Under the pieces are notes generated by a model. That model made no database searches, was not told the origin of the DNA, and saw only the letters and a list, made by a program, of their open reading frames with translations. Shown here in pieces: positions 5,565-32,445 of a stretch of 64,000 bases of DNA (the stretch's first letter is position 1; each line of letters opens with the position of its first letter). Origin of the DNA: Candidatus Woesearchaeota archaeon (GTDB lineage: Archaea; Nanobdellota; Nanobdellia; Woesearchaeales; 0-14-0-80-44-23); assembly GCA_038874135.1 (NCBI GenBank), contig JAVZCZ010000001.1, positions 751,219 to 815,218 on the forward strand, in the 5' to 3' direction. Both the position numbers and the translations under genes were made by a program.

Positions 5565-5612
5565 ATTTCTTATACCTTAACCAACAATGTGGTATTTATA
5601 AACTTAGATTAC

Positions 5613-5708
5613 TTAGTATGCATTTATACACATACACTATTTGTGTCACATTTAAAAATTAGTATATAAAATGAAAATATTTATATATCAATATACATAT
5701 TTAGTATG
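5613..5708 (+). promoter_or_regulatory. Three direct repeats TTAGTAT(G/A) in the AT-rich promoter upstream of the RHH-ATPase-adhesin operon
   Basis: Copies at 5613-5620, 5659-5668 and 5701-5708, spaced 46 and 42 bp apart. The last is 33 bp upstream of the first RHH ATG. Confidence 0.35.
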
Positions 5709-5740
5709 AGTTTGTATTCAAAGACCTTGAAAAGGCTTTT

Positions 5741-5941
5741 TTGGGACCCGAAATGCGCAGTACGCCTGAGAAGCATGGCTCAAAGAGAATAACCATAACC
5801 ATAAGCAAGGACCTTTTAGACTTCTTAGATTTAGCTGTGGAGAACAGGCTGTTCGCAAGCAGAAGTCATGCACTTGAAGTCTTAGTAAGGCGCAGGATGG
5901 AGTTTGAGAATGAAGCAAAGAATTACAATTACATTGGATAG
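5741..5941 (+). CDS. Ribbon-helix-helix (CopG/Arc/MetJ-like) DNA-binding protein
   Basis: 66 aa with a KRITITISKDLLDFLD...NRLFASRSHALEVLV pattern typical of the RHH beta-strand plus two helices. It sits directly upstream of the ATPase operon. Confidence 0.55.
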   Translation: MGPEMRSTPEKHGSKRITITISKDLLDFLDLAVENRLFASRSHALEVLVRRRMEFENEAKNYNYIG

Positions 5942-6101
5942 TGAATGCCTGGCATGGGTTGATGAAAAGGTAAAGAATAGAAGCTTTGCTAATCGGAGCC
6001 ACGGCTTTGAATTTTTAATAGCGCGATTCAAGGAGCGCCAAGAACTTCAGAATCTTCTCAACTCGCGAAATTCAAAGGAGGAAGACTTAAAACATGAATA
6101 A
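5904..6101 (+). CDS. Ribbon-helix-helix DNA-binding protein, paralogue of the 5741 gene
   Basis: 65 aa with QRITITLDSECLAWVD...NRSFANRSHGFEFLIARF. It overlaps both the upstream RHH gene and the downstream ATPase gene start. Confidence 0.55.
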   Translation: MRMKQRITITLDSECLAWVDEKVKNRSFANRSHGFEFLIARFKERQELQNLLNSRNSKEEDLKHE

Positions 6102-9100
6102 AAATCCTACCTTCAGGATACTGGAACGGGACAGGCAGCTGGAAAGGAGAAGACAGCAGCTGTACATCCTATTAGGCATCTTAGGAGTTTTACTAGCAGT
6201 TGGTGTTATACTTCTGATAAGAATGTTCATAGGATACGCAGTTCTGGAAAGCAGGGCTGGCACAATAACACAACTTAATATACAGCTCAGATACTCAACA
6301 CACATATGGGCTGGATTTTACGGATTGGCATTCCGCGTTCCCGGATACACTGAGCAGCAGTCTGCAGTTGCAGTCGGCGGCACAGTCTTCTTGCAGCACT
6401 TAGTATTTGACTGCTTAAAAACTACAGACGGCAACATTCCTGAGGTATATGCCAGTACTTCAAGAAACATTGACTGGAATTCACTCCAGCCAGCAACTCC
6501 AGACTTGATTGACAGCTACCTACAAGTAGATCCTTCAGATATAACCTCTGCTTCAAACACATTTACAGAAACAATGTCAATACTCTTAGGAGACAGAGAA
6601 ATCACAAATATTGCTGCAACGCACACCAAAAAGTTCGGAGTTCCGGACAGCACGGACTTTGATATAGGCTTCTTAAAAGATTCGTTGGGAAATCTCGTAT
6701 TTGTAACCCATGTAACTCCAACTTATACCAAAGGATTTAACAACCAAACTATAAACTACCAAATGCTCCTTCCAGTACAAGCAGGAACAGCTCCAGTATA
6801 CTACTTCTTCTCAGACCCATATGACGAGTGCCAAGCAGGGCTTGAAGCTCTCAAAAATGCTACCATATTCGGAAGAGCCATAGACAATGCAACAGGCCTT
6901 CCACTTGAAAATGTTACAGTTAATCTTCATACTGCTACAGTTCTTACCAACTCTACAGGAGACTATTACATAGCAATATTTAACGGCACCTACACCCTAG
7001 TAGCTTTCAAGCCGGGATATTACACCTTTGTTGCAACAAACATCACTCTCCCAGCTGACAATCTGTCTACACCTCAATCTGAAAATATTGTCGAATTTAA
7101 TATATCCCTCATTCCCAACCCTGGAAACCCAACTGGACTCGGAAACCTAACTGGCACTGTAACTGATAAAGACTTCGGAATACCCCTCTATAATGTAACA
7201 GTGTATGTAAACGGCAGAATCGCTAAGACAAACATTACAGGCCAATACCTACTTGAACTGCCAGCAGGAAATCATTCTCTTATAGCAATGAAGGAAAACT
7301 ACAGAACATACTACACTCCAAATGTAACTATACTGCCTGGAAACACCACTGAATTTAATTTCAGTATGGAATATGCAGAGCCAGAAATAAAAGAAACTCC
7401 TGGATATCCGCTAAATACCTTCGTTTCCAACCTACTCAAACAGGCAGTGCAGAGGCCTCAAATAATACTCACTCATAAGATTGATACAAAAGAGATATTT
7501 GAAACATTAAAAGTTGGCTCATATGTCCAGCGCTCATTCAATATAACGAGTTACAGGCCTGCCGAGTCCAAAGTTGAGTTTGAAGTCATAGGAAGTGCTG
7601 CACAGCTGGTAAAGGTTGACAAGAGCAGCTCAATAATACCTCCAAGGGGTGCAGAAAACTTCACCCTTACAATTCTAGCCAATGTGCCTCCAGGCATATA
7701 TACCGGAACATTCCTAATCAAAGGAGACCTTGAAGACAGAATCCCGATAAAGATAGTTGTTTATGAGAAGGATAGACTTCCAATAGAGGCTCTTCTCCTA
7801 GAAGTAGTGCCAATAAAAAAGATAATCAGCCCAGGAGAACTATTTGAATATAAGGTCAGCATGACAAACCTGCTGAGGGACACCCCATACAACATCACCC
7901 TTTCATACAATATCACCTCGCGCTCTTCAAATCTTACTATTCCCGTTGAAGAAGAGACGAGACTCTTGGAAACTCAGCTTTCCTACCTTAAGTATTACAA
8001 GCTTCCCAAAGACCTGCCAGAAGGAGAATACTTCCTTGAAACTAGAGCGGAATTCTTAGAACTATCAACAAACACAAAATCGCTATTCATAGTTAAGAAG
8101 CCAATTTACATGTATGCATTATTCGGAATACTTCCCCTCTGGCAGCTTTTCATAATAATAGTTTTCACCTCCCTCATGACCTTCGCAGGATTAATGTATC
8201 GGAAGCGTGTTTTGGCTTCTCGTCGTTATGGTGTGAGTGTGGATTTGCGTAGTTTTCCTTCTTCTGGTAGGCTTGTGCGTTTGGGTAAGTTGGCGGAGTA
8301 TGGGCGTGATTTTTGGTTTGATTTGGATGGTTTGACTACGCATTGTATTGTGGCTGGTGCTACTGGTGGTGGTAAGACTGTTGCTGCTCAGGTTTTGGTG
8401 GAGGAGGCTTTGAAGGCTGGTGTGGCTGTGGTTGTTTTTGATCCTACGGCTCAGTGGAGTGGTTTTTTGAGGCCTTGTTCTGATAAGGGTATGTTGTCTT
8501 TGTATTCGGGTTTTGGGTTGCGTCGTTCTGATGCTCGGGGTTTTCCGGGTAATGTGAGGCAGGTGTTGGATGCTCGTGAGGTTTTTGATGTTAGGCGTTT
8601 TATGCGTCCTGGTGAGATTGAGATTTTGAGTTTGAATAGGTTGAGGCCTGAGGAGATTGATGTTTTTGTGGCTAATACTGTTAGGAGCGTGTTTGATGCG
8701 GGTTTGGATGAGTGTCGTGAGTTGAGGTTGTTGTTGGTTTATGATGAGGTGCATAGGTTGTTGCCGCGTTTTGGCGGTTCTGGTGAGGGTTTTGTGCAGA
8801 TTGAGAGGGCTTGTCGTGAGTTTAGGAAGTGGGGTGTTGGTGTTGTTTTGATTAGTCAGGTTTTGTCTGATTTTGTTGGTGAGATTAAGGCTAATATTAA
8901 TACTGAGGTTCAGATGAGGACTCGTGATGAGGGCGATTTGGAGCGTATTCGTGTTAAGTATGGTGATGCTTATCTTAGGGGTCTTGTGAGGGCTAGTGTG
9001 GGTACTGGTATGTTTGAGAATCCCGGTTATAATGGTGGTCGTCCTTTTTTTGTTAGTTTTAGGCCTTTGTTGCATAGTGTGGTTCGTTTGTCTGATGCCG

Positions 9101-9636
9101 AGTTGGGTGAGTATAATAGGTTGAATGGGGTGTTGGATGATTTGGAGTTTTGGATTGGCGAGTTGGAGCGTTTGGGTGTGGACGTGTTTGATTTGAGGTT
9201 GGAGTTGAAGTTGGCTTGGGATAAGTTGAGGGTTGGGGGGTTTGGGATGGTGGATGTTTATGTTGAGGGTTTGAGGCCTCGCGTGTTGGGCGAGTTTGAG
9301 CGTTTGGGGAGGCCTGTTCCTAAGCGTGAGGTTAAACGCCTTTCAGATGAGGAGCTGCAGAAGGAAAAGGAGATTGCTATGCAGGAACATGAGAAAGCAA
9401 AACAGCAGGAAGCAGGACAAACTTCACAAAATTCAGATTCCAAGACAGAAACTTCCCAAATTCAAAACACAAAAGTTGAAGAGCAGCCCAGCCAAAATGA
9501 AAAGGCCGAGAACCAAGAGAATGCAAAATCCTCAAATGAAAATAAAATTAAAAGAGTAAGGGAGGGTAAAAAGCAGAGGATGAGGAAATCAGCAAGTTCG
9601 GAAAAAAATAATAAAAAAAGAGGTGCTAAAAAATGA
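6094..9636 (+). CDS. Membrane protein with TM, ~640-aa ectodomain (CarboxypepD_reg-like / Ig-like domains), TM and a cytoplasmic FtsK/HerA/T4CP-like ATPase
   Basis: N-terminal TM helix LYILLGILGVLLAVGVILLI. Two domains resemble TGLPLENVTV...GDYYIA...KPGYY. Second TM, then an ATPase identical to aa 279-664 of the 3183 gene. Confidence 0.7.
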   Translation: MNKNPTFRILERDRQLERRRQQLYILLGILGVLLAVGVILLIRMFIGYAVLESRAGTITQLNIQLRYSTHIWAGFYGLAFRVPGYTEQQSAVAVGGTVFLQHLVFDCLKTTDGNIPEVYASTSRNIDWNSLQPATPDLIDSYLQVDPSDITSASNTFTETMSILLGDREITNIAATHTKKFGVPDSTDFDIGFLKDSLGNLVFVTHVTPTYTKGFNNQTINYQMLLPVQAGTAPVYYFFSDPYDECQAGLEALKNATIFGRAIDNATGLPLENVTVNLHTATVLTNSTGDYYIAIFNGTYTLVAFKPGYYTFVATNITLPADNLSTPQSENIVEFNISLIPNPGNPTGLGNLTGTVTDKDFGIPLYNVTVYVNGRIAKTNITGQYLLELPAGNHSLIAMKENYRTYYTPNVTILPGNTTEFNFSMEYAEPEIKETPGYPLNTFVSNLLKQAVQRPQIILTHKIDTKEIFETLKVGSYVQRSFNITSYRPAESKVEFEVIGSAAQLVKVDKSSSIIPPRGAENFTLTILANVPPGIYTGTFLIKGDLEDRIPIKIVVYEKDRLPIEALLLEVVPIKKIISPGELFEYKVSMTNLLRDTPYNITLSYNITSRSSNLTIPVEEETRLLETQLSYLKYYKLPKDLPEGEYFLETRAEFLELSTNTKSLFIVKKPIYMYALFGILPLWQLFIIIVFTSLMTFAGLMYRKRVLASRRYGVSVDLRSFPSSGRLVRLGKLAEYGRDFWFDLDGLTTHCIVAGATGGGKTVAAQVLVEEALKAGVAVVVFDPTAQWSGFLRPCSDKGMLSLYSGFGLRRSDARGFPGNVRQVLDAREVFDVRRFMRPGEIEILSLNRLRPEEIDVFVANTVRSVFDAGLDECRELRLLLVYDEVHRLLPRFGGSGEGFVQIERACREFRKWGVGVVLISQVLSDFVGEIKANINTEVQMRTRDEGDLERIRVKYGDAYLRGLVRASVGTGMFENPGYNGGRPFFVSFRPLLHSVVRLSDAELGEYNRLNGVLDDLEFWIGELERLGVDVFDLRLELKLAWDKLRVGGFGMVDVYVEGLRPRVLGEFERLGRPVPKREVKRLSDEELQKEKEIAMQEHEKAKQQEAGQTSQNSDSKTETSQIQNTKVEEQPSQNEKAENQENAKSSNENKIKRVREGKKQRMRKSASSEKNNKKRGAKK
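8201..9356. repeat. Copy 2 of the exact 1,156-bp GT-rich ATPase cassette
   Basis: Identical to 4021-5176. The antisense ORFs 4005-4895 and 8191-9075 are also identical. Confidence 0.9.
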
Positions 9637-10457
9637 AGTCAAAAAAATCAGTTAAGTATAGAGCGAGAGTTCACAATAAGGCTAACTCAAGCAAGAAAGA
9701 TTTGAGAAAAAAGAAGGTTCGCATTGAGAGAAAAAATAGCACTAAAACAATTAGTAAAGAAACATCACCTAAAAAATCCAAAGCTTACTTAAAAAAGCGA
9801 TTTGGCAAGATTGATAACAGAGTTATTAAAAATAAAAATAATAAAGTAAAACCAGGAGCTTTAAAGCACAGAAAAAAAGAGAAGAAGCAGAATGTTCAAA
9901 AAAGAAGAAAAGCAATGCAAAAAAAGCCAGCGCCTGAAAACGCAGCCGCAGCAACCAACCAAGTACAGACAAATACGACTTCAACAGCTCAGCAGGCAAA
10001 TTCTCAAATTGAAACACATTCAGATGTGGAAGCGCTTCAAAAAGAATACTCAGATATCAACAGCTATCTGGTTCAGCGAAGAAAAGCGGGAGTTGACACC
10101 TTCATACAGGAACTGAAACTTTTTTCAATACCGTCAAAAATTCAGCTTTTAAAGGCAGAATACTCAAAAGATTATGCTGACAAGATTAGAGTTCAACTTA
10201 ATGAGATTAGAGAAGAGTTAGAAAAAGCAGAACCTCAACCGACCCCCCTTGACCTTCCTAAAGTTCAGCCGAACCAGCCGAATCCATTCTCAGAGCAACA
10301 GCTCACAAGTCAGAATAATAATCATCCCTTAACGCAGGATGCAGAAAACTATTCAAAAGAACTAGCTGAGAAGCGCCTTTCAAATAAAATAAAAAATTCT
10401 CTGAGAAATGCTTCCAAAAAAGTTATGTCCATATTCAAAAAAGGAGGTGGAAATTAG
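9633..10457 (+). CDS. Lys-rich low-complexity protein
   Basis: 274 aa, K/N/Q-rich, with an ATGA start/stop overlap with the upstream gene. No recognisable domain. Confidence 0.4.
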   Translation: MKSKKSVKYRARVHNKANSSKKDLRKKKVRIERKNSTKTISKETSPKKSKAYLKKRFGKIDNRVIKNKNNKVKPGALKHRKKEKKQNVQKRRKAMQKKPAPENAAAATNQVQTNTTSTAQQANSQIETHSDVEALQKEYSDINSYLVQRRKAGVDTFIQELKLFSIPSKIQLLKAEYSKDYADKIRVQLNEIREELEKAEPQPTPLDLPKVQPNQPNPFSEQQLTSQNNNHPLTQDAENYSKELAEKRLSNKIKNSLRNASKKVMSIFKKGGGN

Positions 10458-11615
10458 ATGTTCAACCTTTTCAAACGGAAAAACTCTGAAGAAGTTCCCA
10501 ATCAACAATCAGCTAACGAAGATCTGACAGCTCCAGCACAAACCCAGCAAACTGCTACTACGCAAGGACAGGAAAACCTCGCTGCAGAATTAATGAAGAT
10601 TAAGGCAGAAGTGGAAGCATTTTCAGATGTAAGAAAAGCCACAAATGAGAAACTTACAAGACTAAGCGAGCAGATTGGAGAGCTAAGAGCAATGATTGCA
10701 GACAGAGACAAGGTGATGAATCAGATAGAGGTTAAAGCTACAAAGGCAGCAGATCTCGTAGCCACAGTTAAGCCTGAAGAGCAGATGGTAGAAATAAAGC
10801 GTCAGGATGCAAAACTTGAAGCGTTTAAAGCATCTCTGGAGAGCAATGAACTTTTGATGAAGAGAGTTTTAGACGAACTTAAAGAGATGAGAACAAAGAT
10901 AGCTTCCTTCCGCGGAATTGAGGAACTAATCAACCTTAACAATGAAGTAAAATCTGAAATAATTGAAATAAAAAAGGTTGAAGCAAACATACAAAAGCAT
11001 GCAGACAAGGTAGAAACGATATTTGCAGAGGTTCAGAAAAGATTCGTTGACTTTACAAAAATTGATGATAGGATAGCATCCAACACGAAGCAAATAGCAG
11101 AGCTATCAAAGAACTTGGACGGAGTGAAGGCAACTGCCTCGGCAGCAGCCACAAAAAAGAGTGTAGATGAACTAACTTCCAAATTCTTAGAAATGAAAGA
11201 CCAACTCTCAGAACTGGTTTCAACAATAAACAAGCGCCTCTCCTTAGTGGAGAAGAACAATTCTGCAGCATTTGAAGCTTTTGAAAAAGCGATAATGCAC
11301 AAGTTTAAACTTTCAAAAGAGGAAGTAGCTGTATTTAAAGAGCAAGTACAGCAGAATCAGCAAGCCCAGCCAACTCAGCAAATATCCCAGCCGCAGGATG
11401 TCTCTCAAAAGAGCAATACTCAAGAGCAAAATCTTCAGACCAGTGAAGCACCCGAAGCTCTACCACAGCCGCAAGCCTCTCAGCAGGTTCAGCAGCCGCA
11501 GAGTGAGCCAAATGAGCAAGACTCAAAAAAGCCTGACAGCAGCATTCAGAAAGAGATAAGAGAAGCAGCCAAGTTTGCTAAAAGGATAAAAAGCAAAAAA
11601 AGAAAGAAGAAATGA
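10458..11615 (+). CDS. Coiled-coil protein with a Q-rich C-terminus
   Basis: 385 aa with a heptad-like E/K/L-rich central region and a Q/P-rich tail. It abuts the upstream stop. Confidence 0.45.
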   Translation: MFNLFKRKNSEEVPNQQSANEDLTAPAQTQQTATTQGQENLAAELMKIKAEVEAFSDVRKATNEKLTRLSEQIGELRAMIADRDKVMNQIEVKATKAADLVATVKPEEQMVEIKRQDAKLEAFKASLESNELLMKRVLDELKEMRTKIASFRGIEELINLNNEVKSEIIEIKKVEANIQKHADKVETIFAEVQKRFVDFTKIDDRIASNTKQIAELSKNLDGVKATASAAATKKSVDELTSKFLEMKDQLSELVSTINKRLSLVEKNNSAAFEAFEKAIMHKFKLSKEEVAVFKEQVQQNQQAQPTQQISQPQDVSQKSNTQEQNLQTSEAPEALPQPQASQQVQQPQSEPNEQDSKKPDSSIQKEIREAAKFAKRIKSKKRKKK

Positions 11616-14600
11616 ATAGCTCCAAATTTTTCAAACTAATAATTTTAGGGTTTATAATAGTGGTAGGTCTCCTAAGCCAGTCAAAAGCAGACAGCATCCA
11701 AGCAGTATATGGCAATACTCAACTCATACTCACAGACAAGCCGCAGTACACTTTGGGAGAAAGTGTAAAGATAAACATACTAATCCCAACACAACTGCTT
11801 TCAGGAATGAATGTTGAAATAGATACCCCTGCTAGCAGATACCAACTTCTTGATTCAAATCTTTCAGAAGTATACTTCACTCCACAGCAAGAGGGAAACT
11901 ATACTATTAAAATATCTTCAGCAGCTGGGAATTTAATATCATCAACTTCTTTTTTAGTACTAAGAAAATCTGAAGTTGAAATTCCCTCATCAGATAGCAC
12001 CAGCCCCAAATTGTCTGCAAAAAACTGGAAGGGAAATTATCAAAAAATACTAAGACAGGAATACCTACCTGCCAACAAGAAGCTTTCAATAGAATTCTCA
12101 GAACTTTCAATACAGAAGATTGATTTTTACAATGTTTCAAATCCGAATGGAGAACTGAAAATAGAAGATGTGCCTCTATCTTATGTTGAAAACTTTTCAG
12201 GAAGAGCAGCGCGCTCATTTGCAATAGACCCAACTTTATTAGAATTTACTTATGCTGAAATTTACTTTACTGCAACTGCCAACGAGCTGTGGAAGTGCCG
12301 CGAATACGACTTCTCAACTAGAAGCTGCGCGGGAAGATATGTAAAAATAATGGACACCATTCCGGGCAGGCAGTATATCTTACACCTCACCAAAGAGGAT
12401 CCTCTCTACACAGAAGTATGGAACAATATAACCTGCACCTGCCAGAATACAGGCCCAAATAACGGCTGGGCATACTGCGAGGTATTCTGTCCGGTCAACA
12501 TTCCAATACCAACAGACGCTTTAGATGGATTCATTCAGATACTAGGCTATAATGTCACCATCACTACATCCTACCCGGCAGGCGGGTACATCACGCCTAA
12601 TTCTGGAATGCACTACGGCTTCTTTGATAGGGACCAGCTGAAAAGCAACGGAAACGAATCCCTAATAGGCTATGTGGCTTATGATGGCCCCGGAACAACC
12701 ACTCAGCTCATATACAACACCAGCATGGCACCGTCTGGAGCATATGCATTTAACAGGGCAAACTGCCCGACTTGGACCTCAGGATACTGCACCTGGTATG
12801 TATTTCTCAACTCAACTGCAAAGAGCAGCAAGGTTAAAAGGCCTGTGACTGTTAATATAACTCTTAATAGCATAAACTGGACTTGGAATTATACAACCCC
12901 TGCGCCTTCAAACATTACAATAAACCTTACAAGTCCAGCAGACAATACTGCCCTCGGATTTAGAAATGTGAATTTTTCCTATATTCCCATTTCAAGTTCT
13001 CCAGTTTCAAACTGCAGCCTTTTTATAAACATTACAGGTAGTTGGAATGCAGTTGCCACAAGCTACTCAATACAAAATAATTCTGTCAACAGTATAAATT
13101 ATACTCTTTCTAACGATGGCGAATACCTCTGGAATATCAGGTGTTATGCTGGAGACATCAGCAGTTTTGCACTATACAACAGAACTCTAATAGTTGATAC
13201 CGCACCCCCTTCAGTCACACTTCTTTCTCCTAACAATAACTCATTTTCTAACACATCTATAATCTCTTTCATTTACAATGTGAGTGACAACTTTAACATT
13301 GCTAACTGCTCATTAATACTGGACAATGTTCTAGTTGCAACTTCATACGCAGTTACTAAATATGTCCCGCAGAATATTACCTACGCGTTATCTAATGGCG
13401 TCCACAACTGGAGCATAACTTGTTTTGACTTTGCAGGCAATTTTAACATTTCCGAAAGTAGGATCATAAATATATCCGCAGTACCTACCATCTGGGACAG
13501 AAGGTGGTATGAAACTTCAACATCAGATTATACCTCTACAGCAAACATTTCTCTCGCAAATTTAAGGGACTCAACAGAAAATTCCATATCCGTTTCAGTT
13601 CCAGTTTCAACATCTTACACCCTTGTAGATGCGATTTCTCCATACATTGGAAGCAACGGGGCATTCGTTCCCAAAGGCACAAATGTATCTTTCAGCGGAG
13701 AATTCTCTACCAGCCCAAATGCAAAGGGAGTTATAAGCTGGTTCTTATACCAGACTGAGGGTTCAACAAAAAACCTTCTCTGTAATTACGGAAATGGCGG
13801 CTCGCTAGGCGCACCCATCTCATCAACAACAACTGCAAGCTGCACTATACAAAATGACACTCTAATGCTCCCAACAAATAGATTACAACTTATTATAATC
13901 TACTATAACAATTTCAAAAATTTAGTGTCTGTAACCCACTATTGGGATGGCACTAGGCTCTCGTTCGTTGAATTTTCAAACTTTACTACCTTAGGAACAT
14001 TAAGCGTTGACCTCTCCTATCCAGACACGGATATAACAGTGGGCCAGAACGAACTGTTCAATATGAGCTGCACAGTTAACTGCTCAGGAGGAAGCTGTCT
14101 TAACACACTCGTCTATGCACAGTATAACACGAGCTCAACGGCATTCACCAACATAGGAAGCTCCGGAAATCTCATTCTTAACACTGGAGAGACAAATCCC
14201 CATTCTCTCGGGAATATCAACCAGAGCTACACTACAACATTCTTAATAAAAGGAAACCTTGCATCAACAAACAACATAAGATGCGTAGCAGTTTCAAACT
14301 ATTCAAACGCTACAGGCCAGATTATAAGAAGGGTAGTTGTGGGGGACACTACGCCTCCAACAGTAAGTCTTGGAAATCCAGCAAACTTTTCTTGGCTGAA
14401 GAGTAAAACAGTAACAATCTATTACACGCCCTCAGACAACAGCGGAATTACTAACTGTTCAATATACTTGAATGATATTTTGAATTATACTCTTAATTCA
14501 GTTCCGAACGGGATTGAGCAGAACTTCACATTCCATAATCTTTCAGACGGACTTTACAATTGGACTGTAGCATGTACTGACAATTCGGCACTAACTACCA

Positions 14601-18652: not shown

Positions 18653-21600
18653 AACGCAGCATAACTTTTGGAATAATTTTTCTACTTTTAATAGCATTAT
18701 CTCTAAAAATTTCCAGTGCGAGCTGTCCGGAAATAATACTTTCATCCAACACCACTATAAAAGATGTAGATATAAAAATAAAAGTTTCAGGGCAGACACA
18801 AGAGTCAGAATTAGTGATAAGAACGCCTTCAGGTCCGTATCGTCTTTTAGGAGATATTCCTTCCCTTACAAGCTTTACTCCAAAAGATGTAGGTAACTAC
18901 TCTGTTGAAGTTTGGCAGGACAAAGTGCTGTGTGACATAAAAAATTTTACCGCACTACCTCACAATAACTCGACACTATTCCTTCCGCCAATACTTTCCA
19001 CAGATAAAAAAGAATACCACTTAGGTGAAGCTGTTAGAATTTCACTCTCACCAGAATATTACGGTTACTCAATTGAAGGTTTAAATTTAAAACTGTTGAC
19101 AGGACAGCAATCCTACTCTCTCTTAGGGGAAATATCTGAGGATATAGAATTCCGACCTGTTTTTGAGGGTAACTATACAATTCTCTTATTAGACTCCATT
19201 GGAAATACTCTTGCTTCTGAAAGCTTTTCCGTCTACGCTTTGAATAGTTACTTTGTTAATAACTTATCTATTAAAAAACGATTTTCGGACAAATTTGAAT
19301 ACAACATCAGCACTAATTCAGAAGACATGATTGTTGAATTCTCAAACTCCTTCATTAAAAGACTAAACCTAAAGAAACTATCTTCAAGTAATCTGGCGAT
19401 AGTTAGGATTTCAGAGTTACTGCCGGAAGAGAGGAGCCGTCTGAATATTCCTACAATTGGAGGTGAAATTAAAGAATCTTTTGAATTAGATCCTTCCGCC
19501 CTAAACTTTTCAGAAGGTGAACTAACAATTGTCCCTTCAGGAAATGAGCTGTGGAAGTGCACTGATTGGAATTATGATGCTCAGTATTGTGTCGGAAGTT
19601 GGATCAAGCAGCAGAATCTTGTTCCCGGTGTTGAAAATGTAATTAAGTTTAACCTTTCCGATCCAGGATATGCTATTGTTGCAACTGCTAACATAACTTC
19701 AATAGCAGCAGCAACCCTCTCTGAAAACTCTTTTGTAGTAGCATATTGCGATGATACAAATGATAGAACTGCTTTCAAGGTTTTCTGGGCTAATGGGAGT
19801 GTAAGAACTAATGAGGTGATAGTTGATTCAACTACTGGAAATTGTGGTTACACCTCAGTTTCTGTTTCAGCACTTACCAACAACTCTTTTGTTATCGGAT
19901 GGATTGATACTGCCAGCAGTTATGCCAGCTTCGCTGTTTATGATGCCTCTGGAAATGTTATTACTCCAAGGGTGGATGTGGATACTACTGCTGGTACTTC
20001 CCGTTCTGTGAGTGTGTCTGCTTTTAATAGTTCTGCTTTTGTTTTTGGTTGGTATGATCAGGCTTCTGCTTATGCTTCTTTTAGGACTTTTAGTTCTTCT
20101 GGTGTGGCTATTTCTTCTGTTGTTAATGTGGATACTACTGCTGGTACTTGTAATGCTGTTTCTGTTTCTGCGGTTAATTCTTCTGCTTTTGTTTTTGGCT
20201 GGTATGATCAGGCTTCTTCTGATATGACTTTTCGTACTTATACTTCTTCTGGCGTTGCGATTTCTGCCGTGACTGATGTGAATACTAAGGTGGGTACTGG
20301 TTCTTTTTCTGTTTCTGTTGCTGCTTATAATTCTAGTGCTTTTGTTATTGTTTGGTATGATCAGAGGCTGGGTTATGTTAGTTTTCGTCAGTATTCTGTT
20401 GCTGGTGTTCAGATTGGGAGTCAGGTTAATCCGGATACTGCTGTTGGGACTACTGCTTCTGGTGTTTTTGTTTCTTCTGTTGGTGTGAATTCTAGTGTTT
20501 TTGCTGTGGGTTGGAATGATTTGACTACTGATGTTGTTAGTTCTGTGAGGACTTATAGTGGTGCTGGTGCTGCTGTTTCTTCTGAGGTGGTTGTGCAGGC
20601 TAATGCTTTGAAGTATAATGCTCTTGCCGGCTACTACCCTGCTACAGGCATAGGTTTCTGCAATGGAAACTTTGTAGCAATAATTGTTAATACTTCTTCG
20701 CAGGCATTTTTTAAAGCATACATGCCTAATGGAAGCGAATGGGACGGAAACTGTCCTGATGTTATACCGCCTCAAGTTGTTCTGAATAGTCCTCAGCAAG
20801 CCGCTGTCTTCTATAGTGATACTGTGGATTTTAATTTTACAGTAACCGACAATGTAGATTTAGTAATTCCAAACTGTACCCTTTGGATAAACACTTCATC
20901 AACATTCTCTCCAAACATAACAATTTACAATATAACCTCTAATAAGATGAACAACATAACTCTATCTCAAATTCCAGACAACAAATACATTTGGAATGTC
21001 AGGTGTTATGACAATGCAGGCAACTCAGCATTTGCTTCTTCAAATTTTTCATTATTTATCAACAAGAATCCACCTCAAATCTTGAACCCCCTCCTGAATG
21101 AAAGTACAGTAAATCAGAGCCATTCAGTAAAGTTTAATGTCTCAATAACCGATTCATATGGTATAGACTCTGCATATATAACTATGATGTACCCAAACGG
21201 TTCATCAAATAATTATTATCTTAATAGAAGTGGGAATGAATTTTACTTCATAATTAATAATACAATCCAGATAGGAACATATTCTGTGATATATGTGTGG
21301 GCTAATGATACCCTCGGACAAAACTCTTCTCTAACCCTTTCAGATCTCCAGTTTAATGTCACGCCTTCACCACCTGCTCAATTCAACCTTTTAAGTCCCC
21401 CGAATGCAACAGAGTCAACAAACCTGCGACCAAACTTGACTTGGGAGACATCTTACGATGAGACATTCCTTAATTATACTATTCAGATTTCTCAGGATGA
21501 AAACTTCGCAACAGTACTCTTTACATATTATAATCCGGGTGTTTATAATACTTCAAGAGTGCTGGATTATGCCCTAGAAGCGAATAAGAAATATTACTGG

Positions 21601-24600
21601 CAAGTTATTGCATACGACACCTTTGGCAATTATAAATATTCAACAAATTACTTCTCATACATAACTGACACTTTGGCACCTTCCATCGTGCTAAATATGC
21701 CGGGAAATCTTTCATTCATAAATTCTACACAAGTCAACTTTACATTTACACCTTCAGATGCTAACACGATATCAAGATGTACTCTCTACCTAAATGTCAC
21801 AGGAGCATTCCTCCCTAACACAAGTATAACTCAAGTTGTTAAAGACACTCCAAATTTAATACAAGCTGAAATTAAAGATGAGGGCGCCCACTTGTGGAAT
21901 ATCCTGTGTAATGATAGCGCAGGAAATTCTGCGTTTGCTCCTCAGAACTTCACCTTTATTTCAGATCTTAACCCGCCCTCAATACAACTATTAAGTCCTC
22001 CCAACGGCAGTACATACAACATTTCCAATTTTGTAAATTTCACTATAAATGCATCTGATAGGATATCCGCAGTATACCGCTGCACACTCATAATAAATGG
22101 ACAGCCCGTTCTTACTTCTTATTCTGTGCAGGACGGAGTGCCATACACATTTCAGTATTTCTTGCTGAATGGAAATTACTCCTGGCAGGCAGAATGTTAC
22201 GACTTAAACGGTCATTCAAACCTTTCTTATTCCTACAACATTTCAGTTTTAGTTATTGATTCAGTACCTCCAATCGTAACCTTAACTAGCCCCGCACAGG
22301 ACCAATACCTTTCCAGTAAAACAGTACTATTCAATTATACTCCGCAAGACGCTACTGGAATAAAGAACTGCACCCTATTTATTGATGGCAATGAAAACGA
22401 AACTGACTTTTCTGTTAGGAACTTGGAACCAAACTACTTCTTATTAGAATACTTAGAGGACGGGGTTCATAACTGGACTGTGCTCTGCTTTGACAATAGC
22501 AGCCAGCAGAACAGCTACGCACCCACCCCTGTAAGGTTCTCAATAGATACAACTCCGCCATCAGTAATTCTTATCTCTCCAGAAGATGGAGTTCTTACTA
22601 ATAATTCTCTAGTCACCTTTGTATACGCACCATCAGATGCAAATCTTGAAAATTGCTCCCTCTACACTAATTCTTCTAGCGAGTGGATGATGGAATCAAC
22701 AGACTTCTACCCAATTAATAATCAGCAGAATGTTTTTCAAAAATCAGTTGCGGATGGAGTTCTCGTTTGGAATGTTGTTTGTTATGATAAGGGCGGGCTC
22801 TCCAGCTTTGCTGACTTTAACCGAACATTGAATGTTGATACAACTCCGCCGCGATACGCCAATATAACTCTGATCCCGACAAGCCCAACTGAATATTCAC
22901 CTTATGGGGAGTATTACTTTAATATAACATGGATTGATGATTTTAATTTGTCATCTGTATATTTTGAGAGCAACTTTTCAGGAACCTTTGAGAATGAGAG
23001 TCCCAACCACTTTGAAAACATTTACTATGTTCACAAGACAGGTCTTAACTCAGGAACATACCAGATTAGGTGGTACGCTACTGATTCGGCAAAAAATCAG
23101 AACGAAACCCCGGCAATTCAGTATGATATAACTAAAGCAGAGCCTAACCTTACTTTAAAAATAAACAATTATTCTTATAATTTGACTGTTGAGGAAGATA
23201 GCATAGTTAATATCTCAGCAGAGCTCTTAGAGCCACCCGGAGCATACCTCTCTATTTATATTAACAATAATCTCATTACTAACGGAACTTCTCCTATTTA
23301 TACTACTTACAACTTTACAGAGCCTGGATCTTATAATGTTACTGCGAGCTTTGAAGGAAGCCAAAACTACCTTTCAGCATTCAGAACAATAATTGTAAAT
23401 GTCTCAGACACTACACCCCCAATTATAGTTCCCATCTTCCCGCAGAATAACTCATTCATAGGGGAAAATCACATTGTATTTTCTTACAATGTAACTGACA
23501 GCAGCCAAATTGCCAACTGTTCTTTATTCATAAATAGAACATTAAACCAGAGCAATACCAGCATACAGAATGGAATAAACTACTTTGAAGTTGACTTTCA
23601 AGATGGCAACTACTCCTGGCACCTCTCCTGTTATGACGAGTTTTCAAACTATGCTGAAAGCCCGGAGATATACTTCACTTCAATAAGGTCAGATAAAATA
23701 ATTGCTTCAGCACATCCTCAACAGCCGCAGTACCAAAAGGGTGAAACGGCAATACTTATAGGAAATACTACGAGCATCTTCGGAACACCATTAGATACAA
23801 ATATTTATGCTAATGTAATAAGAGGCAATACTACGATAGAATGGTGGAACACTTCATTCAAATACAGAAGGCCTATATTTATAAATAACTCAATGAACGC
23901 TTCAACATACTTGCAGGCGCTAATCAACATTTCAAACCTTAGCGCTTCAATTTCTAACTGTTCTGAACTCAGAATTGTAATGAACAACTCTTTTGAGCAC
24001 ACCCTAATCCCCTCAGAAGTACTCTTAGAAGAGGGAAATGCTTCGTGCCTGCTAAGATTTAATGCGAATGCTTCTGCACTCGCCACGAATGAGAACAACT
24101 ACTATGTATATTACGGAAACTCAGGAGCAGGAGCCCAGCAGCAGCTTCCAGAACTTGCAGGCATATCAGTACAGCGTAAGTCTGTTGTGGGAACTACAAC
24201 TTCAATCACTGATACGATGAGTGAGGTGAATACTTCAAGAGCGTTCCTGCTTTTCAGCGCCAATGTCGCCAGCTCAACTCCTGCAGTTTGGGAAATAACG
24301 GGAAGAATATTATCCTCAACGCAGGTAGTGTTTGAAAGATACTCGGGAACCACATCTGCAAATATATCCTGGCAGGTTATAGAAGGCTCAGAGATTAATG
24401 TGCAGAGGGGAACCGCATCATTTGGAGCTACACAATCAAATACTACAATACTTATAGATAGTGTTAATCTAAACGAGTCTTTCATAATAATAACCGGAAG
24501 GACCAGCAGCACCACAGCAGGGAATGCAAACATGGGCTTCTTTAGGGCAATGTTCCTTAACTCTACTGCAATTTATATTGAAAGGGCTACAACTGGAAGC

Positions 24601-26487
24601 ACTGCTGTTGCAGAATGGCAGGTAGTTTCGTGGAGTGGTGCGAGAGTGCAGAGTGGAAACATCTCTTTCATAACAGCTTCGCAGAGCGTCCCCATAGAAG
24701 AGGTTAATCTTTCCAGGAGCATGCTGATATTCAGCACTGCTGTAACTGGCAACACCAGGATAGGAGCTAACATGATTTTTGGCAACTTTACCAATTCCAC
24801 AACAGCATACTTCTCAAGAACGAATGCTGCAGGAACAGCATATGTTTCCTGGTTTGCAGTTGAGCTTCCCCAATACTACTCAGTACAAGCCGGAACAGTT
24901 TCAATCACAGCAGATACCAATGTTCAAATATACCCCGTGCGCACTGAGAAGACATTTCATCTGCACTCAGCTTCAGCAGTAGGAGCAACCAGCACTACCT
25001 ACTCTGATGCCCTAATAAGAGCCGAGCTAACAAATAGCTCAAATCTTATGCTGGATAAGGTGTCTGGCACAAATACCAACTATGTTGCCTGGTTTGTAGT
25101 AGAAGAAAAATATCTTTCAGCTAATTCGGGAATGGAAGAAGCTTTAATGGCATACAACTACAACTCCACATTGACAGGGCTTTACACTCTAAGTTGGGTT
25201 TCCGGAAAGAGCCCGGTGGGCAACTACACCTTTGTATACTCTGCAACAAAAACTAATTACTCATCTGCAAGGGCATACTCCACATTTGAGATAATTCCAG
25301 ACACAACTCCGCCCAATGTTACGCTTGTAAGCCCACTTCAACTTGAAAAGAGGGGCGTCGGAAATATAATCTTTTCCTACATACCTTATGACTTGAACCT
25401 TCTAAACTGCACACTCTACCTTGGAAAGGACGGAACTTTTTCTCCGAACATTACGAGCACGAGTCCAATAAATAATGCAGTAAACAATCTTTCAGTATAC
25501 TTAGACATCGGATTATACACTTGGAATGTGCTTTGTAGGGACAGTGAAGGAAACTCTGCATTTGCTCTGCAGAACAGGACACTTAACATAACAGGCCCAG
25601 ACCTATACCCTGTTGCTGTTTGGTTTAGCAACACGCCCAGGATTGAGACCGTTAACACAACCATCTTTGTTAACATTTCTAATAAGGGGCTTTCTGATTG
25701 TACTAAAAACTTCACTGTTGAGTTCAGGAGAAGTGGGCTGCTCATAGGCAATCTGAGTGTGCAGGGGCTGCTGATTGGCGAAGTTAAAAGCTTGAACTCT
25801 TCATTCCTGTTAGGTCCCGGCATTAATAATTTAAGTATTAGCATAGATCCTGATAACAGGATTAACGAGTCGGACGAGTCAAACAACAATGCTTATGAGG
25901 TTATTGCTGTTGAGTTTTATCAGTACTATTACGGAAATCTTAGCTTTTTACAGGTTTTGAGCAAGTCCTCAAACGAGTCTGTATTCACTTGGGAAAATTC
26001 AAATCCTGAAGATGGGGTTATTTTAGTTGCTGATATTGATTCAAAATTTGAGATTGGAAACTTAAGAGCCCTGACTCGGAATGCAAATGGGGATCCAGTT
26101 ATAAATGATCTTTCAGAATTGGATGAGGCTTTTAATTCTTCAAATCTTAACGATTCTATTAAGAATGTGTGGGGAAACGGCACTGACATTCCAATAATGA
26201 CTGCCAACTTTACGATAGGACAGTTTAATATTTCTAACGTTCCGGTAGCATATTCCAGAAATTCCACTTCTTCAATTACGGGAATACTCTGGGACTCTGC
26301 AGATGATTTAAGCCACAACCTTCAGTATGACAGCTCTGATAGGGAAGATATAGTTCTAATCACAAAGATTCACCCGTTAGCAGACTGTTCTTTTGGTAGC
26401 TGCAATTATGAGATAAGAATTCCAGCAGCTCTACGCTCTTACAAGCCTAACACCGACCTCGTAGTTTTTTACACCATGCTAAACTGA
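18649..26487 (+). CDS. Giant secreted adhesin-like protein with beta-propeller-like blades, Ig-like repeats, a CARDB domain and a conserved C-terminal module
   Basis: 2612 aa with a signal peptide. The ATGA overlap with the upstream gene suggests translational coupling. Blade repeats resemble SVSVSAFNSSAFVFGWYDQAS. Many NC[ST]L...C.D..GN domains are followed by CARDB and the shared C-terminal module. Confidence 0.75.
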   Translation: MKRSITFGIIFLLLIALSLKISSASCPEIILSSNTTIKDVDIKIKVSGQTQESELVIRTPSGPYRLLGDIPSLTSFTPKDVGNYSVEVWQDKVLCDIKNFTALPHNNSTLFLPPILSTDKKEYHLGEAVRISLSPEYYGYSIEGLNLKLLTGQQSYSLLGEISEDIEFRPVFEGNYTILLLDSIGNTLASESFSVYALNSYFVNNLSIKKRFSDKFEYNISTNSEDMIVEFSNSFIKRLNLKKLSSSNLAIVRISELLPEERSRLNIPTIGGEIKESFELDPSALNFSEGELTIVPSGNELWKCTDWNYDAQYCVGSWIKQQNLVPGVENVIKFNLSDPGYAIVATANITSIAAATLSENSFVVAYCDDTNDRTAFKVFWANGSVRTNEVIVDSTTGNCGYTSVSVSALTNNSFVIGWIDTASSYASFAVYDASGNVITPRVDVDTTAGTSRSVSVSAFNSSAFVFGWYDQASAYASFRTFSSSGVAISSVVNVDTTAGTCNAVSVSAVNSSAFVFGWYDQASSDMTFRTYTSSGVAISAVTDVNTKVGTGSFSVSVAAYNSSAFVIVWYDQRLGYVSFRQYSVAGVQIGSQVNPDTAVGTTASGVFVSSVGVNSSVFAVGWNDLTTDVVSSVRTYSGAGAAVSSEVVVQANALKYNALAGYYPATGIGFCNGNFVAIIVNTSSQAFFKAYMPNGSEWDGNCPDVIPPQVVLNSPQQAAVFYSDTVDFNFTVTDNVDLVIPNCTLWINTSSTFSPNITIYNITSNKMNNITLSQIPDNKYIWNVRCYDNAGNSAFASSNFSLFINKNPPQILNPLLNESTVNQSHSVKFNVSITDSYGIDSAYITMMYPNGSSNNYYLNRSGNEFYFIINNTIQIGTYSVIYVWANDTLGQNSSLTLSDLQFNVTPSPPAQFNLLSPPNATESTNLRPNLTWETSYDETFLNYTIQISQDENFATVLFTYYNPGVYNTSRVLDYALEANKKYYWQVIAYDTFGNYKYSTNYFSYITDTLAPSIVLNMPGNLSFINSTQVNFTFTPSDANTISRCTLYLNVTGAFLPNTSITQVVKDTPNLIQAEIKDEGAHLWNILCNDSAGNSAFAPQNFTFISDLNPPSIQLLSPPNGSTYNISNFVNFTINASDRISAVYRCTLIINGQPVLTSYSVQDGVPYTFQYFLLNGNYSWQAECYDLNGHSNLSYSYNISVLVIDSVPPIVTLTSPAQDQYLSSKTVLFNYTPQDATGIKNCTLFIDGNENETDFSVRNLEPNYFLLEYLEDGVHNWTVLCFDNSSQQNSYAPTPVRFSIDTTPPSVILISPEDGVLTNNSLVTFVYAPSDANLENCSLYTNSSSEWMMESTDFYPINNQQNVFQKSVADGVLVWNVVCYDKGGLSSFADFNRTLNVDTTPPRYANITLIPTSPTEYSPYGEYYFNITWIDDFNLSSVYFESNFSGTFENESPNHFENIYYVHKTGLNSGTYQIRWYATDSAKNQNETPAIQYDITKAEPNLTLKINNYSYNLTVEEDSIVNISAELLEPPGAYLSIYINNNLITNGTSPIYTTYNFTEPGSYNVTASFEGSQNYLSAFRTIIVNVSDTTPPIIVPIFPQNNSFIGENHIVFSYNVTDSSQIANCSLFINRTLNQSNTSIQNGINYFEVDFQDGNYSWHLSCYDEFSNYAESPEIYFTSIRSDKIIASAHPQQPQYQKGETAILIGNTTSIFGTPLDTNIYANVIRGNTTIEWWNTSFKYRRPIFINNSMNASTYLQALINISNLSASISNCSELRIVMNNSFEHTLIPSEVLLEEGNASCLLRFNANASALATNENNYYVYYGNSGAGAQQQLPELAGISVQRKSVVGTTTSITDTMSEVNTSRAFLLFSANVASSTPAVWEITGRILSSTQVVFERYSGTTSANISWQVIEGSEINVQRGTASFGATQSNTTILIDSVNLNESFIIITGRTSSTTAGNANMGFFRAMFLNSTAIYIERATTGSTAVAEWQVVSWSGARVQSGNISFITASQSVPIEEVNLSRSMLIFSTAVTGNTRIGANMIFGNFTNSTTAYFSRTNAAGTAYVSWFAVELPQYYSVQAGTVSITADTNVQIYPVRTEKTFHLHSASAVGATSTTYSDALIRAELTNSSNLMLDKVSGTNTNYVAWFVVEEKYLSANSGMEEALMAYNYNSTLTGLYTLSWVSGKSPVGNYTFVYSATKTNYSSARAYSTFEIIPDTTPPNVTLVSPLQLEKRGVGNIIFSYIPYDLNLLNCTLYLGKDGTFSPNITSTSPINNAVNNLSVYLDIGLYTWNVLCRDSEGNSAFALQNRTLNITGPDLYPVAVWFSNTPRIETVNTTIFVNISNKGLSDCTKNFTVEFRRSGLLIGNLSVQGLLIGEVKSLNSSFLLGPGINNLSISIDPDNRINESDESNNNAYEVIAVEFYQYYYGNLSFLQVLSKSSNESVFTWENSNPEDGVILVADIDSKFEIGNLRALTRNANGDPVINDLSELDEAFNSSNLNDSIKNVWGNGTDIPIMTANFTIGQFNISNVPVAYSRNSTSSITGILWDSADDLSHNLQYDSSDREDIVLITKIHPLADCSFGSCNYEIRIPAALRSYKPNTDLVVFYTMLN
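19969..20624. repeat. Copy 1 of an exact 656-bp GT-rich cassette encoding propeller-blade repeats
   Basis: Nucleotide-identical to 30550-31205. The composition is anomalous. Flanking sequence is homologous but diverged. Confidence 0.9.
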
Positions 26488-26655
26488 GTTCAAATGTTTC
26501 TTTACATTTAGTTATCTAGTTTATCTATTAATATATTTAATATAATAAATTAATTATTTTAATTTATTAAGTTAAATATTTTTTTAATTAATTTATTATT
26601 TTAATAACTTAATCAGCAAGTTTTAAAACCCCTATTAACTTATTAAAAATCTAAG

Positions 26656-27150
26656 ATGCCAATTTTAAAGAAAGAGCAACCAACTGCATTTCAGGAGCCA
26701 CCTAAAGAAGTGCCGCCCTTGGCGCGGGAGATAATTGAAAGGAGCAAGATAGCTGGGCATACCGAACTTCCTCAGGAACTTCCACGAATTGCCGAATTGG
26801 TTGAAAGCCCAAAACAGGAATATCCAATACCACAAGAGTCAGCTCACGCTTCCGACGACATAAAAGAAGTGAAAGAACGCCTTGAACGAATAGAATCCTT
26901 GCTCAGAACTGCTGTTCCGGGAAAATATCTCATACTGAGAGATGGGAAAGTACTTAAGAACATTGCCGATTTGAGAAGCGCTTTAGCCACGATGAGTTCG
27001 GAAACATTCAATTTGCATGTCAACTTTGAGAGGAATGACTTTGCAAATTGGGTTAGGAATGTCTTCTTGGAAAAAGAGCTTGCTGATAAGTTGGATGGAG
27101 CCACGAGCAGGGCTCAGATGATTAGAATTTTAAACGAATATTTTGACTGA
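26656..27150 (+). CDS. Hypothetical soluble protein with a C-terminal HVNFERND domain
   Basis: 164 aa. The last ~70 aa are similar to the cytoplasmic C-terminus of the 35335-37869 protein (F.HVNFERND.A.W...LA..L...M..IL). Confidence 0.5.
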   Translation: MPILKKEQPTAFQEPPKEVPPLAREIIERSKIAGHTELPQELPRIAELVESPKQEYPIPQESAHASDDIKEVKERLERIESLLRTAVPGKYLILRDGKVLKNIADLRSALATMSSETFNLHVNFERNDFANWVRNVFLEKELADKLDGATSRAQMIRILNEYFD

Positions 27151-27378
27151 GAAATTCTTAAGTTTTCTTCTCGTGAAGACAAAGTTTATTTTTAAACGAA
27201 ATCCCATTTGAACATTTTTAAGTTATATAATTCTTTATTTTTAATAAAAAAGAATTTTAATCCGTTATAATTAAAAAATAAGCATTTTAATGGTTTTTTT
27301 TATAGATTTTTTATGATTTTTTTTAGAAATATTTATATATTAGTATACCTTTTTGTAGTTTAAATTAATAAAAAAGTT

Positions 27379-27413
27379 ATTGGTATACTGCAATGATTAA
27401 AAAGTATACCAAT
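27379..27413. promoter_or_regulatory. Palindromic operator-like site, ATTGGTATACT-N13-AGTATACCAAT
   Basis: Perfect 11-bp inverted repeat 41-75 bp upstream of the 27454 ATG. An additional TAGTATACC half-site lies at 27341-27349. Confidence 0.4.
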
Positions 27414-27453
27414 AGCTTATTTACAAGCTTAAAGCAAGCAAGAGGGTGTCAAC

Positions 27454-28224: not shown

Positions 28225-28294
28225 GGGAAAGCCATACTTGCTTTCTCTTATTAATTTTCACCTCCAGGCGAGGCGAGCAAGCGAGTGATGAAAA

Positions 28295-28498
28295 ATGGAA
28301 CGCATCCCAGCACTAAATCCCAGATACACAAAAGTGGTCTGGCAGGAAACCCCTCAATCTGTAAGGGTTATACAGGGTATCTATTCTGAAGATGGAGACT
28401 TCATAAGAGTTAAAGGCGACTATAAAGAGGTTCTAATCAGAAAGGATAAGGTGATCTCCATAGAGCACAAGCAGGCTGCGCGGGGTGATATAAAATGA
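28295..28498 (+). CDS. Small hypothetical protein
   Basis: 67-aa ORF between the two paralogues, with an ATGA overlap with the downstream gene. Confidence 0.35.
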   Translation: MERIPALNPRYTKVVWQETPQSVRVIQGIYSEDGDFIRVKGDYKEVLIRKDKVISIEHKQAARGDIK

Positions 28499-29187: not shown

Positions 29188-29194
29188 GCCAGAG

Positions 29195-32418: not shown

Positions 32419-32445
32419 GATTTAAATAATCGTGGTGATGAAGAT

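Follow-up and report, generated by a model that had tools for sequence, protein, structure and literature searches.

Membrane-anchored HerA/VirB4-clade ATPases and giant Ig-repeat proteins encoded in one conserved gene cluster of Woesearchaeota-type archaea: a candidate contact or transfer apparatus

In the Ced system, by which Sulfolobales import DNA, two paralogous transmembrane (TM)-anchored ATPases of the HerA clade, CedB and CedD, are both needed (PMC11868833; PMC9905601). The Ced/Ted DNA-import systems of Crenarchaeota (CedB/CedD, TedB; PMC9905601, PMC11868833) are the closest system to the gene cluster analyzed here, which lies in a 64,000-nt stretch of a Candidatus Woesearchaeota archaeon genome (GCA_038874135.1, contig JAVZCZ010000001.1, positions 751,219 to 815,218 of the forward strand); this whole stretch is called the window, and positions are counted from its first base. 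The cluster joins two membrane ATPases (ATPS and ATPL) to a large surface protein (adhU), small cytoplasmic proteins, a coiled-coil protein (CC), and two giant secreted proteins (G1 and G2), and it would encode an envelope apparatus found throughout the lineage of DPANN archaea of the Woesearchaeales/Pacearchaeales type. Full-text literature searches gave no published description of this cluster, in agreement with an earlier note on this DNA, whose author did not recognize it as a described system. It is widely conserved, apparently undescribed, and built on a known class of motor. Among the relatives of this motor, FtsK, TraB, VirD4, and CedB/CedD translocate DNA, VirB4 energizes secretion and pili, and EccC serves protein export; to our knowledge, all characterized membrane-anchored members of the superfamily are ring ATPases.

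ATPL (6094-9636, plus strand) is a two-TM protein whose 630-aa ectodomain is predicted to be glycosylated and whose cytoplasmic part comprises an ATPase of the HerA/VirB4 clade and a tail rich in K, Q, and E. Its hydrophobic segments span aa 24-42 and 673-691, and their Arg-rich flanks, which precede TM1 and follow TM2, mark the cytoplasmic sides; the 630-aa loop carries 21 N-glycosylation sequons and the 489-aa C-terminal part none. Because of the two TM segments, the Arg-rich flanks, and the confinement of sequons to the loop, the predicted topology is N-in/C-in with a large outward loop. The earlier description of a bitopic protein therefore holds for the large ectodomain and the cytoplasmic motor but is not strictly correct, since there are two hydrophobic segments. 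The ATPase passes Pfam DUF87 and HerA_C, its Walker A (GATGGGKT, aa 754-761) and Walker B (LLLVYDE) motifs are evident, and the motor model is confident (predicted local distance difference test, pLDDT, 89). A search of PDB sequences with the motor returned HerA at 1.8e-7, and in structural comparison the motor was nearer to HerA and VirB4 than to FtsK, with VirB4 and EccC also being close relatives. By sequence and structure comparison, the motor belongs to the FtsK-HerA superfamily, as the DNA-translocase assignment of the earlier note had it, and within it to the HerA/VirB4 clade (ASCE, i.e., additional strand catalytic glutamate, P-loop core and HerA-like fold). An NCBI protein 100% identical to ATPL bears the annotation HerA-like domain protein and comes from a Candidatus Woesearchaeota metagenome-assembled genome (MAG).

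The ectodomain of ATPL begins with a conserved domain of 220 aa, designated domain X (aa 43-262; 6220-6879, plus strand), which has two invariant Cys residues, a model pLDDT of 86.8, and homology to two secreted proteins encoded downstream, d256 and d230 (hhalign match to d256, 97.7%, E 1.9e-12). No solved structural relative of domain X was found, and a fold search of BFVD had no match down to the E threshold of 0.001; a viral origin of the motor or of domain X was rejected on the BFVD result and on a scan of viral contigs with one P-loop-only match. The rest of the ectodomain (6883-8109, plus strand) comprises two CarboxypepD_reg (transthyretin-like) domains and membrane-proximal Ig-like domains, the latter being homologous to the ectodomain of ATPS. 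ATPS (3183-5564, plus strand) is the short-ectodomain counterpart: TM segment at aa 13-31, an Ig-like ectodomain of ~215 aa, and a second TM segment at aa 249-267, which is followed by a HerA-like motor and, at the C terminus, by a DUF5752-like domain.

The likeness to Ced lies in the TM-anchored HerA/VirB4-clade ATPases, a paralogue pair there and ATPS with ATPL here, and in an archaeal cell-contact context. The best NCBIfam match of ATPL was CedD at 30.3 bits against a cut-off of 600, followed by TraC and TrbC at 17-18 bits, and these matches cover the P-loop only. Instead of a cytoplasmic VirB4-like N-terminal domain (NTD), the N-terminal region of ATPL is a 630-aa extracellular glycodomain, and the protein does not conform to the CedB/CedD/VirB4 family model, which includes this cytoplasmic NTD. 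Most relatives have a single ATPase, and the partners (CC, domain X, and the giants) differ from those of Ced. As for a channel of Ced, Ted, or type IV secretion system (T4SS) type, no protein with five or more TM segments was found in 1-33,636; the 8-TM protein r407 lies outside this interval. A small two-TM pilin ORF (open reading frame) of the VirB2/CedA1 kind was not found in the operon, and Pfam and NCBIfam gave no matches to one.

With T4SS, the locus shares a TM segment right before the motor, as in TrwB, and RHH (ribbon-helix-helix) accessory genes nearby, as in relaxosomes; it differs from VirB4 and VirD4/TrwB in the huge loop and in the absence of the other T4SS components, the all-alpha domain, and the VirB4 NTD. 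A HerA-NurA assembly (PDB 4D2I) does not fit, since the ~60 residues between TM2 and Walker A of ATPL leave no room for a HAS barrel; no NurA, Mre11, or Rad50 domains were found in the neighbours of the ATPase, and ATPL, in contrast to HerA, is membrane-embedded with an ectodomain. The type VII secretion system (T7SS) with EccC/EssC likewise has a membrane-anchored FtsK-like ATPase beside small signal-less helical and large secreted proteins, but EccC-type motors have three ATPase domains against one here, and WXG100, EccB, EccD, and EccE are absent from the locus, Pfam scans having given no WXG100 match. Membership in an anti-phage HerA or MADS defence system, where the HerA-like ATPase goes together with an effector (Sir2, DUF4297, or a nuclease) or with the mad gene set, was rejected, since only the ATPases matched PADLOC models and their neighbours had no matches.

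The genes form a compact block in which seven co-directional plus-strand ORFs (5741-5941, 5904-6101, 6094-9636, 9633-10457, 10458-11615, 11612-18652, and 18649-26487) follow each other with a spacing of 0 nt or less at all six junctions. Read directly in the sequence, the coordinates, overlaps, ATGA junctions, and abutment reported earlier were all present: start/stop overlaps of the ATGA type at 9633, 11612, and 18649, a TAG/ATG abutment at 10457/10458 between the K-rich and coiled-coil genes, and an 8-nt overlap of RHH2 and ATPL (6094-6101). The overlap of RHH1 and RHH2 amounts to 38 nt only with TTG starts, and to 32 nt with the in-frame, likely start codons ATG 5753 and ATG 5910. A+T makes up 77.8% of the spacer upstream (5565-5740) against a window value of 59.7%. 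With two TATA-like boxes, one at 5663 and one at 5680, the interval 5565-5752 (plus strand) is a candidate archaeal promoter, predicted from the sequence only, and may be the single AT-rich promoter region proposed earlier. The genome is compact, and starts that overlap stops are also frequent in other parts of it, so tight coupling alone is not exceptional, and the feature above chance is the kept gene order rather than the spacing.

The block opens with RHH1 (5741-5941) and RHH2 (5904-6101), both on the plus strand. Pfam RHH_1 was the best match for both small proteins, below threshold (15.2 and 13.7 bits vs. a cut-off of 20.5), and a profile of 21 orthologues matched the RHH domain of NikR at E 3.5e-10, as well as HicB3 and CopG. 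This profile places both among predicted ribbon-helix-helix DNA-binding proteins of CopG/NikR type (a strand and two helices), the class already given to them as regulators. The K-rich cytoplasmic protein (9633-10457, plus strand) contains 18% Lys, a basic, low-complexity N-terminal half, and a conserved C-terminal helical motif, RKxGxD..I..LKL..IPxKI; homology of this motif to the C-terminal hairpin of the ATPase was unsupported (hhalign probability 0.1%). CC (10458-11615, plus strand) is a conserved cytoplasmic coiled-coil protein whose core has 13 invariant residues over 18 orthologues and whose Q/P-rich, polybasic tail is variable; searches for a named family gave scattered coiled-coil noise only. 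No TM segment or signal peptide was found in the K-rich protein or CC, and the Lys content of the one and the coiled coil of the other bear out their previous description as low-complexity and coiled-coil proteins.

G1 (11612-18652, 2346 aa) and G2 (18649-26487, 2612 aa), both on the plus strand, are secreted Ig-repeat glycoproteins with a conserved C-terminal domain in common. The Pfam domains of G1 are Big_7 (E 2.4e-23), Big_13 (2.9e-23), and CARDB (1e-8), and those of G2 are Big_7 and CARDB; G1 contains 132 sequons and G2 128. An N-terminal signal-like segment is the sole hydrophobic segment of each, consistent with the two secreted multi-domain adhesins without anchors that had been proposed. 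Both belong to the class of Ig-like repeat adhesins, and an adhesive function is predicted for them. Upstream of the block, adhU (1-3222, plus strand) encodes a large type-I surface protein with PKD, CarboxypepD_reg, and Ig-like ectodomains, a TM segment (aa 829-847 in the numbering of the listed ORF), and a cytoplasmic tail that is helical and ends in a polybasic stretch. The upstream pair of adhesin and ATPase is thus present as stated earlier; the adhesin gene is incomplete, its ORF continuing past the 5' end of the window.

Conservation was scanned with one genome per GTDB species, which gave at least 598 pattern matches, and at least 568 of the listed matches encode ATPase relatives. The best 80 of these at least 568 relatives all come from Woese/Pace/Nanoarchaeia-type MAGs, some deposited under other labels. 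A profile search yielded 1330 protein clusters, none with an annotation beyond DUF87, HerA-domain, or hypothetical protein. Gene order was counted in 83 loci, in which ORFs were called and searched with the window proteins, the denominators being the loci with enough flank; these loci were picked via the ATPase, and the converse, neighbours without ATPase, was weakly tested. The CC gene lay within 3 kb downstream of the ATPase on the same strand in 54 of 60 loci, with a small gene between them in 53 of 60. A large surface protein homologous to adhU was encoded directly upstream of the ATPase in 37 of 61 loci (median gap of 7 nt, 15 overlaps), and a giant adhesin downstream in 23 of 49. The kept order is surface protein, ATPase, small cytoplasmic protein, coiled-coil protein, and giant adhesin, and gene calls on independent contigs gave the same order. 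The neighbourhood is therefore kept among relatives, and the homologous loci do contain the ATPase, so that the refuting condition named in the earlier note, loss of the ATPase module from them, did not apply.

Two tandem ATPases occurred in 12 of 83 loci, and most relatives have a single ATPase; one of these (L042) has the order RHH, adhU, ATPase, d164-like protein, CC, and giant. The pair of adhU and ATPS is the ancestral arrangement, as in most relatives, and the RHH-RHH-ATPL segment looks like a lineage-specific tandem addition. With an upstream position in 8 of 56 loci, the RHH genes are the least conserved part of the cluster. Genes of the d256 type were found in 20 of 83 loci, directly after the CC gene in many Pacearchaeota-type loci. 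Among three loci anchored on d256, one had a series of RHH, PKD-protein, and DUF87 genes, and in the other two, arrays of d256 genes stood next to giant adhesins, the surrounding 10 kb being free of DUF87 genes. In a distant relative (L004), outside the clade with NNK-coded motors described below, a reverse-transcriptase (RVT_1) gene lies at 21531-22733, ~8 kb downstream of the ATPase.

The unit extends beyond 5741-26487, from base 1 to about 33.6 kb and possibly to 41 kb. As a functional block, 5741-26487 is kept in relatives, but its borders do not hold, since the upstream surface protein and ATPase are the ancestral core. The downstream genes are tied to the motor because of common domains, namely domain X in d256 and the DUF5752-like tail, and the secreted-protein genes in 26656-33636 have domains in common with the ATPase and G2. 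The small cytoplasmic protein d164 (26656-27150, plus strand) has a DUF5752-like C-terminal domain (aa 80-161) in common with ATPase homologues (97.8%, E 1.2e-12), in which it is likewise C-terminal; this tail is common to ATPS, r844, and d164. The secreted stand-alone domain-X proteins d256 (27454-28224, plus strand) and its 36% identical paralogue d230 (28495-29187, plus strand) belong to a DPANN-only family of >547 hypothetical proteins. They are followed by d305 (29195-30112, plus strand), a secreted paralogue of the C-terminal part of d752, and by d752 itself (30160-32418, plus strand), a secreted protein in which a G2-like repeat module precedes the d305-like domain. This module of ~490 aa is nearly the same in G2 (aa 346-834; 19684-21150) and d752 (aa 34-527; 30259-31740; E 5e-178), and it contains ~50-aa propeller-like repeats and a 150-nt tandem duplication; a tandem repeat spans 19948-20247. 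The last gene of this group, d396 (32446-33636, plus strand), encodes a protein with a signal peptide, Ig-like domains, and a C-terminal TM anchor, and it co-occurs in 11 loci.

Three minus-strand genes are possibly associated components: r844 (35335-37869), encoding a surface protein with a TM segment and a cytoplasmic DUF5752-like tail; r578 (38192-39928), encoding a very strongly conserved 578-aa protein with a signal and a C-terminal TM segment, which in 14 loci (E about 1e-126 to 1e-143) is again encoded only a few kb from the ATPase; and r407 (39964-41187), encoding an 8-TM membrane protein with no family match, found near the ATPase in 13 loci. The spacer after G2 (26488-26655) has an A+T content of 86.9% and a T7 run at 26579, and it could contain a terminator and a promoter for the downstream secreted-protein genes. 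Farther downstream follow housekeeping genes of archaeal type (NOG1 GTPase, aIF5B, topoisomerase, and a candidate AMP phosphorylase). At 52139-52245 (plus strand), Rfam detected a 107-nt tRNA (60.3 bits), unreported by ARAGORN, which is probably an intron-containing archaeal tRNA.

With a probability of roughly 0.4, by analogy with the characterized members of the superfamily, the cluster would encode an envelope-spanning, ATP-driven machine for the translocation of a polymer, most likely DNA, or for assembly, at adhesin-mediated contacts. From the observed gene order, fold class, topology, and domain sharing, we infer a ring, a cargo, a transport direction, and physical contacts as follows. 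Only ~60 residues separate the motor from the TM helix before it, which suggests a ring apposed to the membrane as in TrwB, and the ATPase may form such a ring at the membrane as characterized superfamily members do. Driven by ATP, the ring would thread or extrude a polymer, with the TM helices and the ectodomain stalk forming the passage. DNA is the most likely cargo by analogy with CedB/CedD, VirB4/VirD4, and FtsK and in view of a nucleotide-scavenging lifestyle; the window encodes a candidate AMP-phosphorylase-type nucleotide-salvage enzyme as supporting context, and the suggested fit to a host-dependent archaeon agrees with the source, a DPANN archaeon. The translationally coupled adhU and the giants would provide attachment and a scaffold, CC and the small proteins bearing the C-terminal domain of the ATPase could act as adaptors or pilots, the secreted domain-X paralogues may extend or decorate the extracellular part, and the RHH proteins would regulate the locus.

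Several points weigh against DNA translocation at contacts. A polytopic channel (VirB6/CedA/ComEC-like), a pilin, a nuclease, a relaxase, and a single-stranded DNA-binding protein were not found in 1-33.6 kb. The giants bear ordinary Sec-type signals and need no dedicated ATPase, and they were detected in under half of the testable loci, partly from the flank limit and divergence. The matches to DNA-translocase families are P-loop-only and far below cut-off, and VirB4 and EccC, which serve assembly or protein secretion, are close structural relatives too.

The most probable alternative is a VirB4- or EccC-like motor for fibre or coat assembly or for protein secretion, which would power protein export or polymerization instead of acting on DNA; we consider it possible, though clearly less probable than a DNA machine. 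Candidate cargoes are d256 and d230, delivered onto the domain-X base of the ATPase, or the neighbouring signal-less helical proteins. The opening domain of the ATPase ectodomain, which recurs in the secreted d256 and d230, argues for it, as do the d256-type genes right after the CC gene in many Pacearchaeota-type loci (20/83 loci in all) and the signal-less helical proteins encoded immediately downstream of the motor in 53-54 of 60 loci, which recall T7SS substrates. However, d256 and d230 carry cleavable Sec-type signals, arrays of d256 also exist without a DUF87 gene within 10 kb, the motor has one ATPase domain vs. three in EccC, and Pfam scans of the window proteins found no WXG100 or pilin-like proteins.

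An envelope or surface-layer (S-layer) scaffold with a coupled segregation or remodelling ATPase seems unlikely. The giants would then be coat glycoproteins held by the stalks of adhU, the ATPase ectodomain, d396, and r578, and the motor would link the envelope to a cytoplasmic process, e.g., chromosome partition or division. The anchorless, sequon-rich giants and the near-universal presence of the cluster in the lineage are consistent with such a scaffold, and FtsK is in the same superfamily, but the motor is nearer to HerA/VirB4 than to FtsK, and division genes are not linked to the cluster. Weak matches of the ATPL ectodomain to SlaB (sub-cut-off) and of a region of r578 to ArlF also point to a scaffold, yet both are far below cut-off.

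HerA ATPases are common in defence systems. A fortuitous adjacency of fast-evolving surface genes and a HerA-like ATPase, or a defence or mobile-element ATPase, is nevertheless very improbable: archaeal surface genes do cluster in "dark matter" islands (PMC4158269), and PADLOC matched the ATPases with mad8 at 3e-15 and HerA models at 1e-9, but chance adjacency is largely refuted by synteny, the order and the overlaps of stop and start codons being kept even where identity to the relative has fallen to about 37%, the ATPase shares domains with its neighbours and is itself fused to an ectodomain, and no effector partners, integrase, or viral relatives were found.

The motors of both ATPS and ATPL are encoded by an exact direct repeat of 1156 bp, with copy 1 at 4021-5176 and copy 2, the ATPase module of ATPL, at 8201-9356 (both plus strand; 100% identical). 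This cassette is 75% G+T with about 97% NNK codons; in ATPL, 372 of 384 codons end in G or T. Its composition (A 0.148, C 0.099, G 0.371, and T 0.381) departs from that of the flanks (near A 0.33, C 0.24, G 0.18, and T 0.25), and the share of G/T-ending codons switches from ~40% to 100% where TM2 ends, in the space of a single block of 20 codons. The NNK state (97-100%) was also found in the closest relatives (L001, L005, and L042) and in three metagenome contigs (L086-L088 listed), where third-position A and C are at 0.00-0.03 despite a genome GC content of 29-45%. The 84 other orthologous modules are normal (median G+T of 0.48, maximum of 0.58), and the NNK cassette is limited to this small clade. 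In L005 and L042, essentially one codon is used per amino acid, that with the fewest A and C. The commonest replacements relative to the outgroup consensus are K to R (14) and I to V (9).

Within NNK genomes, paralogous cassettes are 96.9-100% identical (96.9% for the copies of L001), and between these genomes they are 77-84% identical, except for L005 vs. L042 (97%). The modules of ten non-NNK two-ATPase genomes have 63-95% identity to each other, so the recoded state goes with strong concerted evolution. An assembly artefact was rejected, since six independent assemblies have the same tandem arrangement and the L001 copies are only 96.9% identical. Recent horizontal transfer was rejected as the source of the 100% identical four-fold sites of L005 and L042, one-codon usage itself fixing synonymous sites, and GC-biased gene conversion was rejected as C is depleted rather than enriched. 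The sense RNA of the cassette folds normally, and the CA-rich antisense strand is almost structureless. Stop-free antisense ORFs occur at 4005-4895 (minus strand, 296 aa) and 8191-9075 (minus strand, 294 aa), in register with the ATPase codons, and encode low-complexity sequences rich in T/K/N/P/Q/H. They are probably not genes, the antisense frame being open because the sense codons are NNK; a real antisense gene as the driver was rejected for this reason and because it leaves the avoidance of third-position C unexplained.

The signature is as would be expected, by analogy, from C-to-T and A-to-G change on an exposed coding strand. Vertebrate mitochondrial DNA has a GT-rich H strand with strand-asymmetric composition (PMC1794132), and one strand of the cassette is likewise enriched in the keto bases (G+T); skewed loci that undergo gene conversion, e.g., Borrelia vls (PMC9159922), resemble it in being homogenized in this way. 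The cassette differs from both in being one 1.15-kb coding segment of a cellular gene, saturated, sharply bordered, and stable across species of 29-45% GC. The recoding might stem from R-loop or transcription-associated deamination, from recurrent transfer and recombination of the cassette in single-stranded form, from selection for GT-rich pairing DNA preferred by RadA, or from selection on mRNA. A reading that joins both parts, in which an undescribed translocon class of its own would take up or exchange DNA at contacts with hosts or neighbours and a strand-specific process with recurrent single-strandedness and gene conversion would keep the cassette G/T-only in one clade, is rather doubtful, at about half the weight given to DNA translocation.

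DPANN archaea account for a large share of the diversity of archaea and are mostly host-dependent. The cluster, present in hundreds of species, couples a translocase-class motor to the cell surface and to giant proteins, and it is thus a concrete candidate for a contact or transfer apparatus that bears on how Woesearchaeota-type cells attach and acquire nucleotides or DNA. With domain X, the coiled-coil partner, and the DUF5752-like tail, it also adds new protein families. The cassette represents a sharply bounded natural case of extreme strand-specific recoding and could reveal a targeted mutational or recombinational mechanism; if true, this would be a local heritable mutational or recombinational regime undescribed for any cellular gene.

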